A stretch of 64,000 bases of DNA from Escherichia coli O127:H6 str. E2348/69 (GCF_000026545.1 NC_011601.1), one strand, 5' to 3'. Counted from the stretch's first letter, positions 2 through 2,629 are shown. The notes: generated by a model from the sequence alone, not told the origin. A program made the numbers and translations.

Positions 2-649
2 ATGAAGATCCGCTCGGTGTTTGTTTATACCCACGATACTATCGGCCTGGGCGAAGACGGCCCGACACATCAGCCCGTTGAGCAACTGGCGTCGCTGCGT
101 CTGACGCCGAATATGGAAACCTGGCGCGGTTGCGATCAGGTGGAAGTGGCGGTAGCCTGGCAACAGGCGATTGAGCGCAAAGATGGCCCAACGTCGTTGG
201 TATTAACGCGCCAACCGCTGGCGCAACAGCCGCGCACCGCTGCACAGTTGGCAGAGATTGCGCGTGGTGGTTATGTACTGAGTGATTGTGACGGTCAGCC
301 TGAGATGATCCTCATTTCTGCGGGTTCAGAGATTGAGTTAGTGGTCAGCGCCGCAAAAGCGTTAACGGAAGAAGGGCGTAAAGTTCGCGTGGTTTCCATG
401 CCGTGTACCGAGCGTTTCGATAATCAGGATGCGGCGTACAAAGAATCGGTATTGCCAAAAGCTGTACGCAAACGTCTGGCGGTAGAAGCCAGCATCGCCG
501 GATTCTGGGAACGCTACGTGGGCCTGGACGGTAAAGTGATCGGCATGACGAGCTTTGGTGAGTCTGCTCCGGCGAATGTGTTGTTCAAACACTTTGGTTT
601 TACGCCGGAAAATGTCCTGGCGCAGGCGCGTGAGCTACTGAACAGCTAA
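2..649 (+). CDS. Transketolase, C-terminal ~215 aa (5' end lies upstream of window); divergent from both K-12 TktA and TktB
   Basis: ORF translation carries the transketolase pyrimidine-binding/C-terminal domain ([23 protein letters not shown] ... GFTPENV); frame is open to the window edge; my recalled alignment to TktA/TktB gives only moderate identity, so a third paralog. Confidence 0.8.
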
Positions 650-678
650 ACCTGCACAAGGGGTGAAAGGACGACCTT

Positions 679-1524
679 TTACCCCTTGAAACGGGAGCCG
701 AGAAACTCTTCACGGGTGCGGTATTTCTCGTAATGCGCCTTGTTTTTATACATAAACAACAGCACCAGCATATCAATAACGCCCATTGCCGGAACGCGAG
801 TGGAGTCGAAGGCTTCAAAGAAGATTTTATCGCTGACCGCGGTATTGAGTTGATGGGTGGAGAGTTTTGATAACGGAGATTTAATATAGTTAGTGATACA
901 AACGGACTTGGCACCGCGCTCTTTCACCACTTTAAAGATATCGACCATTAAGTTGGTGCTGCCAGAGTTAGAAATACCAATCGCCAGGTCGCGTTTCCCC
1001 ATAGAATATGCCGCATTAATTTGCATTTCCGGGCTGACGTGAACAACGGTTTTTAATCCGAGTTGGCTGAATTTATAAGCACCATAAACGGCCAGAGGGT
1101 TTGAATTTCCGGCAGCAAAAAAGAAAATAGTATCGCAATTAGCAAGTAGTTTGAGAATGGACTCAAGTACTTCGGCATTAAAAAATTGCGTTGATTGTAT
1201 TAAATCTTCGGCCTGTTTTTTTAATAAAAATGTGGCCAGCGACGTTATATCGGTAAAATCGGTATTATCAGGATAGCTATTGTCAGGATTAATGACTTCT
1301 TTTGCTAATGCAATTTTTAAATGGTAATAACCCTGATAACCTAATTTCTTACAGGTGCGTACGATAGTCGCTTCACTGGCATGGCTTTTTTCTGATAGTT
1401 CAGTGACACTATAGTTCACGACTTCATGTGCGTGGCTAAGAATATAGTCAGCGACCTTTTTTTCCGCCTGATGCAGTGTAGGGTAATTGCTTTGAATCAG
1501 ACTTTTTACGGTTATGTTATTCAT
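679..1524 (-). CDS. RpiR/MurR-family transcriptional regulator (N-terminal HTH plus SIS sugar-phosphate-binding domain)
   Basis: 281-aa ORF; N-terminal HTH region followed by SIS-like phosphosugar-binding segment (AIGISNSGST); convergent with transketolase. Confidence 0.7.
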   Translation of the reverse strand: MNNITVKSLIQSNYPTLHQAEKKVADYILSHAHEVVNYSVTELSEKSHASEATIVRTCKKLGYQGYYHLKIALAKEVINPDNSYPDNTDFTDITSLATFLLKKQAEDLIQSTQFFNAEVLESILKLLANCDTIFFFAAGNSNPLAVYGAYKFSQLGLKTVVHVSPEMQINAAYSMGKRDLAIGISNSGSTNLMVDIFKVVKERGAKSVCITNYIKSPLSKLSTHQLNTAVSDKIFFEAFDSTRVPAMGVIDMLVLLFMYKNKAHYEKYRTREEFLGSRFKG

Positions 1525-1723
1525 AATTAGTAAATTTCATTCTGACAGAAAGTGCTGATTATAACATAGTTTTCAGGCGTGGATAGGTATGAAAAAATGA
1601 AGGTGTGCAGTGAACGTAATGATTAACAGACCGGTTAATTTTCATGAATTACGTCAACTGCACAAAAATAATTTAAACGGGCGCTCTAATTAAAGCAAGA
1701 CTTATATTTTTATCATTGTATTG

Positions 1724-2629
1724 TCAATTAAATACAAATCGTGTCATTAATTGCGGGTTTCTTAAATATTCTATGCACCACTGACAGGCTTTGCCCATAC
1801 CATCGGAACGAGCGGCAAGAAATAACTTGGTGGCGTGTTTATGTTCGCGCATTGGCTTTTTAAGCAATTTACCGCTGTTCAATAACGGCAATGCCAGATG
1901 ATGTGGAATATAACCAATACCGACGTTTTGTTCTATTAAGGCGATTGCCGTAGCGAAGTCAGGAACAAAAATGGGTTTTTGTCCTTCCAACAACCAGGCT
2001 TGCATCGGGGGGAAGTTAACGGAGGTATCGCGGATACAAACCGCTGGATAATGACGCAATTCACTGTTTTCTAATGGATGCCGCTTCGCTGCCAGTGGGT
2101 GGAGTGGGCTGACGACAAAATCCCATTCCATTTGTCCGACCGGTTCGCTAATGATGCCTTCACTGCTTGGTACTGCATGAGGAGCACCGTAGACCAGATC
2201 AGCACGCTTACTGTACAGCGCATCCCAGCAGCCGTTGTATACCTCAAGATCTACCGTCAGTGTTGTTGATGTGAATTGCCGTTCAAAATCTCGAATAAAT
2301 GCCACCAGCAAATTACCAGGAATAATATTGTTTACCGCAATTGTCAGTTCACGCTCAATACCATCGTGAATCAGCACTGTGTTGCGCTTTAATGCTTCCA
2401 GATCGCCAAGAATAGTTTTGCTATGTTCGATGAAGTAACTTCCCGCTGGCGATAATTCAATATAGCGTCCCTTACGAATGAACAGTTCAACGCCCAGGCT
2501 CTCTTCCGCTTTCTTGATAGTGTAACTGATGGCGGAAGGGACTTTATTTAACTGCTCGGCTGCGGTGGTAATGCTCTGGTGTCTGGCGACCAGATGAATA
2601 ACACGAAGCGTTTCGTCTGAGATGAACAT
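1724..2629 (-). CDS. LysR-family transcriptional regulator
   Basis: 301-aa ORF with N-terminal LysR HTH (LRVIHLVARHQSITTAAEQLNKVPSAISYTIKKAEESLGVELFIRKGR) and C-terminal substrate-binding fold; sits 77 nt downstream of the permease gene. Confidence 0.8.
   Translation of the reverse strand: MFISDETLRVIHLVARHQSITTAAEQLNKVPSAISYTIKKAEESLGVELFIRKGRYIELSPAGSYFIEHSKTILGDLEALKRNTVLIHDGIERELTIAVNNIIPGNLLVAFIRDFERQFTSTTLTVDLEVYNGCWDALYSKRADLVYGAPHAVPSSEGIISEPVGQMEWDFVVSPLHPLAAKRHPLENSELRHYPAVCIRDTSVNFPPMQAWLLEGQKPIFVPDFATAIALIEQNVGIGYIPHHLALPLLNSGKLLKKPMREHKHATKLFLAARSDGMGKACQWCIEYLRNPQLMTRFVFN

Follow-up and report, generated by a model that had tools for sequence, protein, structure and literature searches.

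Escherichia coli O127:H6 strain E2348/69 carries, at the left end of a 64,000-nucleotide stretch of its DNA (NC_011601.1; referred to here as the window, with positions counted from its first letter), the 3' end of an accessory transketolase gene, tkt1, which belongs to a four-gene cassette that also encodes an isomerase, a phosphotransferase system (PTS) transporter, and an RpiR-family regulator. An earlier note, made from the sequence of the window alone, had described the C-terminal region of a transketolase that diverges from both TktA and TktB, converges on an RpiR-family regulator gene, and lies beside a LysR-family gene; it had also proposed that a sugar-phosphate module continues upstream of the window and had raised a speculative link to sulfoquinovose degradation. 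We followed up these proposals by computational analysis. The first 5.6 kb of the window are a 100% match to E. coli O127:H6 E2348/69, and this end of the window contains the following features.

2..649, plus strand: 3' end of tkt1 (last 215 codons and stop codon); the start of the gene is 1349 bp to the left of the window (NZ_LT827011.1 4203094)
657..688, no strand assigned: hairpin with a 14-bp stem (arms 93% complementary) between the convergent genes tkt1 and rpiR, overlapping the rpiR stop codon
679..1524, minus strand: gene for an RpiR-family regulator of 281 aa with HTH_6 and SIS domains, convergent with tkt1
1525..1723, minus strand: AT-rich region upstream of rpiR with one TTTCATGA box at 1640-1647, a candidate auto-regulatory operator
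1724..2629, minus strand: gene for a LysR-family regulator of 301 aa; the nearest families are PunR and AllS, both below cut-off

The 215-codon stop-free frame at 2-649 on the plus strand is the C-terminal end of a transketolase, as the earlier note had recognized; it matches profile positions 445-654 of 654 in the NCBIfam model TIGR00232 (E 1.8e-87), and its score of 294 bits is under the cut-off only because the part in the window is partial. The complete gene is present in the genome record (1998 bp, 665 aa; NZ_LT827011.1 4203094-4205091), and the whole protein scores 1009.1 bits against a cut-off of 682.25, with domains PF00456 at residues 4-333, PF02779 at 353-523, and PF22613/PF02780 at 539-655. 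In the 20 kb that we fetched to the left of the window (locus L001), the gene order after metE is a HxlB-type SIS isomerase gene (185 aa), a PTS IICB gene (502 aa), tkt1, and the convergent rpiR; the anticipated sugar-phosphate module thus does continue upstream, and its left boundary does lie beyond the window, with accessory DNA starting approximately 3.76 kb before the window, just after metE. The isomerase scores 205.3 bits against the HxlB model TIGR03127 (cut-off 160), and its closest solved structure, with an end-to-end alignment, is that of Bacillus subtilis YckF (HxlB). The transporter consists of an EIIC (PF02378) and an EIIB (PF00367) domain with no EIIA domain and passes TIGR02002, the equivalog model for glucose-specific IIBC, by a narrow margin (607.7 bits, cut-off 591.8), a score from which the substrate specificity of this PTS cannot be read. 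The regulator has the expected HTH_6 (PF01418, residues 7-77) and SIS (PF01380, residues 127-255) domains and falls below the cut-offs of all named equivalogs (HexR, AlsR, and MurR), with no assignable effector.

This cassette is part of an element that is already known, namely the 16-kb tkt1 genomic island between metE and ysgA of avian pathogenic E. coli (APEC) O1, in which tkt1 was named and placed by Li et al. (2012, BMC Microbiol 12:51, PMC3349570). The gene order in E2348/69 matches APECO1_2643 to APECO1_2632 in Table 2 of PMC3349570, the sole difference being an insertion of ISEc13. Homology to K-12 stops 84 bp past the metE stop codon and returns at ysgA, at window position 11737. The islands of the two strains share the insertion site and the same order of isomerase, PTS IIBC, tkt1, and two regulators, as well as a permease, a carbamate kinase, yahG/F/E-like genes, and an isochorismatase-like hydrolase; E2348/69, by contrast, lacks the udp-rmuC islet found in APEC O1 and has its yahG/allG-like gene split by ISEc13. 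E2348/69 is also an enteropathogenic and not an extraintestinal pathogenic E. coli; Li et al. found tkt1 to be strongly associated with extraintestinal pathogenic strains of phylogroup B2. The same island corresponds to Region IVb of E. coli 83972 and to GR 29 of strain BEN2908, where the isomerase, PTS, RpiR, and LysR genes were annotated much alike (PMC12928451). Our literature searches on the gene combination, on Klebsiella hxlB, and on the locus tags returned nothing on this locus beyond genome and island papers. Two unrelated modules make up the island, the sugar cassette on the left and a nitrogen module on the right. An imperfect direct repeat of approximately 24 nt is found at both island junctions (window 11746-11769 and L001 16212-16235); it derives from the 3' end of ysgA (CA[G/C]CATACTG[C/T]GTAAACCATTCCA), and a K-12-like copy of the ysgA end is retained at the left junction. 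Li et al. reported no direct repeats flanking the island (PMC3349570).

Tkt1 is a third transketolase paralogue, encoded by a full-length gene; an ordinary tktA or tktB in a rearranged genome is ruled out, since 5425 of the 5426 complete E. coli genomes carry tktA, as many carry tktB, and neither of the two cross-matches tkt1 at the level of DNA. The divergence recorded in the earlier note holds for the part in the window (215 aa; 70.0% identity to K-12 TktA and 62.3% to TktB) as well as for the whole protein (68.4% and 65.4%, respectively), as compared to 75.4% between the K-12 enzymes TktA and TktB themselves and 77.7% between TktA and a Vibrio-like transketolase (PDB 8QMF). Because Tkt1 is less identical to TktA and TktB than these are to each other or to 8QMF, it falls, by pairwise identity, outside the housekeeping transketolase group. 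All three E. coli enzymes share a single-chain build with the same three domains and similar lengths (665 aa for Tkt1 versus 663 and 667 aa), and Tkt1 is identical to TktA at all 23 catalytic, cofactor, and metal positions that we checked. These positions, chosen on the basis of the TktA structure, include (in TktA numbering) H26, H66, H100, D155, N185, I187, H261, R358, D381, S385, E411, F434, F437, Y440, H461, D469, H473, and R520; TktB agrees at the same positions with one exception, E at 258. TktA and TktB differ from Tkt1 in being core enzymes of E. coli, Tkt1 being accessory (21% of complete genomes); unlike theirs, its gene shares an operon with PTS and isomerase genes and reportedly does not complement a tktA mutation (PMC3349570).

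The nearest relatives of Tkt1 that we found are the enzyme of a Klebsiella cassette (87.4% identity) and, next, a transketolase (70.6%) from a metagenomic contig with Trb conjugation genes, on which its gene and hxlB form a pair. Tkt1 and these two relatives share, among others, the substitutions K359Q, A383S, S463T, S519T, and N522P, at which they differ from TktA, TktB, and 8QMF; these substitutions flank the phosphate-binding residues R358, S385, H461, and R520, a location that hints that Tkt1 may treat the distal part of its substrate differently. A search for Tkt1 homologues in a large protein collection gave no phylogenetic information, as the best 120 matches were all near-identical E. 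coli proteins.

Of the 5426 complete E. coli genomes, 1134 contain the hxlB-PTS-tkt1-rpiR stretch with a coverage of at least 80%; its location is chromosomal in every case, and the cassette is intact in all 1134 carriers. These include E2348/69 and sequence type 131 (ST131), both of which belong to phylogroup B2. Window positions 1-5600 are likewise found in 1134 genomes, and the equal counts indicate that the neighbouring module accompanies the cassette at least to arcC in those genomes. Between E2348/69 and an ST131 strain, the ratio of nonsynonymous to synonymous substitution rates (dN/dS) is 0.036-0.096 for the four cassette genes, with approximately 0.10 for rpiR. Between E. coli and Klebsiella, the synonymous sites of all four genes have reached saturation, and dN/dS is approximately 0.02 for the PTS gene and tkt, the only two genes for which it was computable. 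By these ratios, Tkt1 is under strong purifying selection, a pattern unlike that of an enzyme in decay or without activity.

A comparison of the gene neighbourhoods of HxlB homologues showed that the same set of genes recurs in other bacteria. In Klebsiella, the four genes occur in the E. coli order (identities of 87% for Tkt, 90% for PTS, 80% for HxlB, and 78% for RpiR), and after them come glycerate-kinase-like, alpha/beta-hydrolase, AP_endonuc_2, and GFO/IDH/MocA genes. In Serratia ficaria, hxlB and the PTS gene are accompanied by the same extra genes and an RpiR gene, without tkt. Sebaldella (Fusobacteriota) combines hxlB with a split transketolase, a PTS IICB, and an RpiR gene whose product is 42% identical to E. 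coli RpiR, and Enterococcus combines hxlB with a split transketolase, a beta-glucoside-type PTS IIBCA, and an RpiR gene (46% identity to E. coli). Two metagenomic contigs have tkt-hxlB pairs beside ABC-transporter and ROK-kinase genes, and an Enterocloster cluster has hxlB together with kinases, an aldolase, and a split transketolase. Directly upstream of hxlB, a Treponema locus has a gene of the orotidine-5'-monophosphate (OMP) decarboxylase family, and a Bacillus locus has an unannotated open reading frame of 217 aa. A scan of species-representative genomes for HxlB returned two loci, one in Bacillus and the other on a Klebsiella-like contig labelled Chryseobacterium. The latter (CACSKA010000003.1, L015, deposited as Chryseobacterium sp. 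18061) has an HxlB-like gene with 80% identity and a Klebsiella-type order of open reading frames; its origin is probably enterobacterial, through either mislabelling or contamination.

The Sebaldella PTS (L020 9313-10782) is 69.5% identical to the island PTS (L001 17093-18601), while the latter is only approximately 44% identical to PtsG of E. coli (PMC12928451); because the island PTS is so much closer to that of Sebaldella than to PtsG of its own species, these similarities point to inter-phylum transfer of the transporter gene and possibly of more of the cassette. The full-length and split cassette transketolases are only approximately 30% identical, and the split enzymes, while retaining most key residues, differ at 258, 385, and 440 of the 23 positions and by the conservative change I187L. 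Since full-length and split types replace each other, it would seem to be transketolase activity itself that the cassette needs. The recurrent unit, as judged from gene neighbourhoods, is a hexuloisomerase-type enzyme with a transketolase and a transport and phosphorylation function, under predicted RpiR control. As a separate observation, hxlB and the PTS gene are linked to GFO/IDH/MocA, AP_endonuc_2, and alpha/beta-hydrolase genes in Klebsiella (L002 13211-16558), Serratia (L004 647-5872), and an actinobacterial contig (L012 10782-13530); a glycerate-kinase-like gene joins this set in the enterobacteria, and the whole set is absent from E. coli. The combination of GFO/IDH/MocA, AP_endonuc_2, and hydrolase genes is reminiscent of 3-keto-sugar pathways.

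Regulatory sequences around the cassette were also found. A perfect CRP core, TGTGACTAGCTTCACA (TGTGA-N6-TCACA), lies 78 nt upstream of the hxlB ATG (L001 16401-16416, corresponding to NZ_LT827011.1 4200843-4200858, 3.6 kb before the window) and is the sole such site in 45.6 kb, with 0.03 expected. The hxlB upstream regions of E. coli, two Klebsiella-like loci, and Serratia have all conserved the TGTGA half of this site and two ATTTCATGA boxes spaced 30 nt apart, and four of the six TTTCATGA matches in the 45.6 kb fall within the two intergenic regions of the cassette. We infer that the region upstream of hxlB is a catabolite-repressed promoter with candidate RpiR operators. The four-part set in Klebsiella, Sebaldella, and Enterococcus, a modest observation, and the CRP site with its boxes are the new additions of this analysis to what has been published on the island.

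We consider it reasonably probable that the four genes encode a catabolite-repressed, RpiR-controlled pathway for a PTS sugar that requires transketolase activity. This reading draws on the gene content and intactness of the cassette, the conservation of catalytic residues, purifying selection, recurrence in other bacteria, and the CRP site and boxes, as described above. In such a pathway, transcription would start from a promoter upstream of hxlB activated by CRP-cAMP, and RpiR would repress it until its SIS domain binds a phosphosugar intermediate. The IICB protein, which is without a IIA domain and would presumably use Crr, would import a glucose-like sugar and phosphorylate it at a primary hydroxyl; the HxlB-type isomerase would then shift the carbonyl, either from a 3-keto to a 2-keto position or from an aldose to a ketose, to yield a ketose phosphate or an intermediate of the pentose phosphate pathway. 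Finally, Tkt1, a thiamine-diphosphate enzyme, would move a C2 ketol unit to an aldose phosphate and thereby bring the carbon into central metabolism. As pentitol and ascorbate operons illustrate, a transketolase gene within a catabolic operon is usually a sign that its product is passed to the pentose phosphate pathway. The MurP-MurQ-MurR and als (AlsK, RpiB, AlsE, RpiR) operons follow a like logic, combining transport and phosphorylation with an enzyme that is of the SIS family or converts a sugar phosphate, and with an RpiR-family regulator that senses through a SIS domain; the catalytic steps differ, however, and a transketolase is an unusual member of such an operon in E. coli.

Several observations weigh against this proposal. 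Li et al. reported no difference in carbon-source use on Biolog plates between the wild type and a tkt1 mutant, the sole phenotype being a weaker use of the dipeptides Pro-Ala and Phe-Ala as nitrogen sources, and the K-12 tktA mutant BJ502 remained unable to grow on L-arabinose when Tkt1 was expressed from pBAD (PMC3349570). No sequence evidence names the substrate: rare ketohexoses, 3-keto sugars, heptoses, 1,5-anhydroglucitol, and pentoses were weighed on the basis of chemistry and of neighbouring genes elsewhere, and the sequence favours none of them. The extra genes that accompany hxlB and the PTS gene in Klebsiella, Serratia, and the actinobacterial contig are absent in E. coli, where the pathway could thus be incomplete. 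The second ATTTCATGA box overlaps the ribosome-binding site and might be conserved for that alone, and a consensus promoter scan found no promoter upstream of hxlB and, overall, fewer promoter-like sites than the mean of shuffled sequences. The terminator-like count in the same scan was approximately 1 standard deviation above the shuffled mean, and an Rfam scan of the cassette found no RNA family.

The main rival explanation, which we judge to be unlikely, is that Tkt1 is a redundant isozyme and the PTS an extra glucose transporter, the two together increasing glucose uptake and non-oxidative pentose-phosphate flux with no special substrate. The PTS does score above the glucose-specific IIBC cut-off, albeit narrowly (608 versus 592 bits), and every canonical catalytic and phosphate-binding residue that we checked is present in Tkt1. 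According to PMC3349570, an APEC O1 tktA mutant grows on L-arabinose while a K-12 tktA mutant does not, and another transketolase therefore compensates in APEC O1; the lack of a carbon-source phenotype in the tkt1 mutant also fits a redundant enzyme. By contrast, overexpression of Tkt1 gave no complementation of K-12 tktA (PMC3349570), and neither a dedicated RpiR regulator nor a HxlB-type isomerase has a role in plain glucose use. A beta-glucoside-type PTS, moreover, replaces the glucose-type PTS in Enterococcus and in the actinobacterial contig, and the substitutions K359Q, A383S, S463T, S519T, and N522P cluster by the phosphate pocket.

Li et al. themselves interpreted Tkt1 as a protein that has lost most transketolase activity and has a direct or indirect role in dipeptide nitrogen metabolism, an explanation that we find quite improbable. 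In addition to the failure to complement BJ502, that study found the tkt1 mutant to make poor use of Pro-Ala and Phe-Ala as nitrogen sources, a defect that was reversed by complementation, and a signature-tagged mutant to be out-competed in chickens (PMC3349570). The evidence on activity in the available text of PMC3349570 is genetic only, however, and we found no enzyme assay there. The intact 23 of 23 catalytic and cofactor positions and dN/dS values of approximately 0.02-0.05 argue against a loss of function, as does the context of the gene: tkt always occurs with a PTS and a sugar-phosphate isomerase and is exchanged, in other phyla, for an unrelated and catalytically equipped split transketolase. 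A thiamine-diphosphate ketol transferase, in addition, has no obvious chemistry on dipeptides, and the nitrogen phenotype could be indirect or reflect a polar effect on the neighbouring nitrogen module. Because the residues are conserved, the gene is constrained, and the cassette appears to need transketolase activity, our sequence comparisons call into question the very low activity that was inferred for Tkt1 in the published study.

It is highly improbable that the cassette serves a ribulose-monophosphate-type route, in which HxlB would interconvert fructose-6-phosphate and 3-hexulose-6-phosphate, Tkt1 would regenerate pentose phosphates, and a homologue encoded elsewhere in the genome (SgbH or UlaD) would stand in for the missing hexulose-phosphate synthase, with a role in formaldehyde handling or pentose-phosphate synthesis. 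The isomerase is above the 6-phospho-3-hexuloisomerase cut-off, its nearest structure is YckF, and isomerase and transketolase are consecutive in the established cycle. However, no hxlA lies beside hxlB in any Tkt- or PTS-linked locus examined, and no gene of the OMP-decarboxylase family was found in the island or in the Klebsiella, Serratia, Sebaldella, Enterococcus, and metagenomic Tkt-linked loci; a PTS and a phosphosugar regulator, furthermore, do not fit formaldehyde metabolism. The island isomerase thus resembles that of the HxlA/HxlB pair (YckG/YckF of B. subtilis) in passing the HxlB cut-off and aligning fully with YckF but differs from it in being partnered by a transketolase and a PTS rather than by a hexulose-phosphate synthase.

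The sulfoquinovose link raised in the earlier note, by which Tkt1 would be a sulfofructose transketolase acting with the variant yih locus 56 kb away, is barely credible, and we rejected it, as far as sequence can tell, because of the enzyme architecture, the head-group motif, the neighbours of the gene, the chemistry of its transporter, and the intervening core genes. Two of the observations behind it stood: the yih locus of E2348/69 is indeed non-canonical, with no genes annotated yihS or yihQ, and transketolase-dependent sulfoglycolysis does exist in other bacteria (PMC9594981). The clusters that encode it contain the sulfoquinovosidase YihQ, a FucI-like isomerase SqvD, SqvB, the split transketolase SqwGH, a RpiB-like SqwI, and the reductase SqwF (PMC9594981), and sulfofructose transketolases have the head-group motif RAFDR where ordinary enzymes have RSFHR (PMC11659671). 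Such clusters and the tkt1 cassette are alike in having a transketolase beside an isomerase in a dedicated sugar-catabolic cluster; the split enzyme, the RAFDR motif, and the genes for sulfoquinovosidase and sulfoacetaldehyde reductase, by contrast, are features of the former only. Tkt1 is a single chain of 665 aa, as opposed to the split SqwGH (PMC11659671), and has R358, S385, F434, H461, and R520, which, with the motif provisionally placed on TktA numbering, give RSFHR rather than RAFDR. YihQ, SqvD, SqvB, SqwI, and SqwF are absent from the cassette, in which the neighbours are HxlB, PTS IICB, and RpiR, and no Pfam call of sulfosugar metabolism was made in the immediate cassette neighbourhoods in Klebsiella, Sebaldella, and Enterococcus. 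A PTS of the glucose family would, by the known chemistry of such systems, act on the 6-hydroxyl, a group that sulfoquinovose lacks. The distance between the loci is as previously noted, and the approximately 56 kb include the core genes udp, ubiE/J/B, tatABCD, fadAB, an rRNA operon, polA, and glnALG. The yih locus itself (window ~56343-64000) contains yihW-, yihV-, yihU-, and yihT-like genes, followed by a zinc-dependent alcohol dehydrogenase, two major facilitator superfamily transporters, and an aldose 1-epimerase, and is a variant of the K-12 sulfoglycolysis cluster.

With regard to the features that border the cassette, the hairpin at 657-688 has a minimum free energy of -27.5 kcal/mol (z-score -7.15), and none of 200 shuffled sequences folded equally well; no T-run follows it, and it likely ends or stabilises the transcripts of both tkt1 and rpiR. 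The LysR gene lies beside the transketolase and RpiR genes, as had been noted (1724-2629, minus strand), but is probably not part of the cassette. It is on the same strand as the NCS1 permease gene, 77 bp downstream of it, and, by the precomputed Pfam calls of the neighbouring genes, none of the cassettes of Klebsiella, Sebaldella, and Enterococcus has a LysR gene beside it; because of this gene order and this absence, the LysR gene most likely belongs to the nitrogen-catabolic module, which it probably controls. That module is a minus-strand run at window 2707-11478, closed by the NCS1 permease gene, and includes genes for a cysteine hydrolase, DUF2877/YahE-like, FdrA/YahF-like, and AllG/YahG-like proteins, a carbamate kinase, and an allophanate-hydrolase-related protein; it resembles a paralogue of the yahEFG-yahI and fdrA-ylbEF-ybcF sets of K-12 and may, judging from this gene content, represent a carbamoyl-phosphate-yielding pathway for a nitrogen heterocycle. 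A transposase gene of ISEc13 (IS4-like) at 5668-7041 splits the AllG/YahG-like gene into two pseudogene fragments (window 5311-8293), and because of this break the nitrogen module is probably inactive in E2348/69, where the transketolase cassette is intact.

Beyond the reading of the four genes as a pathway for a PTS sugar, we tentatively propose, with somewhat less confidence than in that reading itself, that the cassette is a self-contained, horizontally mobile pathway for an as yet unnamed sugar that is common to Enterobacterales, Fusobacteriota, and Bacillota, that it couples a hexuloisomerase to a transketolase instead of to a hexulose-phosphate synthase, and that Tkt1 may be fully active and possibly shifted in substrate. 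The island was documented previously, and its presence in E2348/69 adds little; approximately one fifth of complete E. coli genomes, ST131 included, nevertheless keep an intact and strongly constrained transketolase/PTS/isomerase cassette. If the proposal is true, it would be the loss of a host- or microbiota-derived carbon source, and not a role in dipeptide use, that makes tkt1 mutants less fit in birds. Naming the sugar would account for a determinant of fitness in extraintestinal pathogenic E. coli and would define a new pairing of classical pentose-phosphate and ribulose-monophosphate enzymes.

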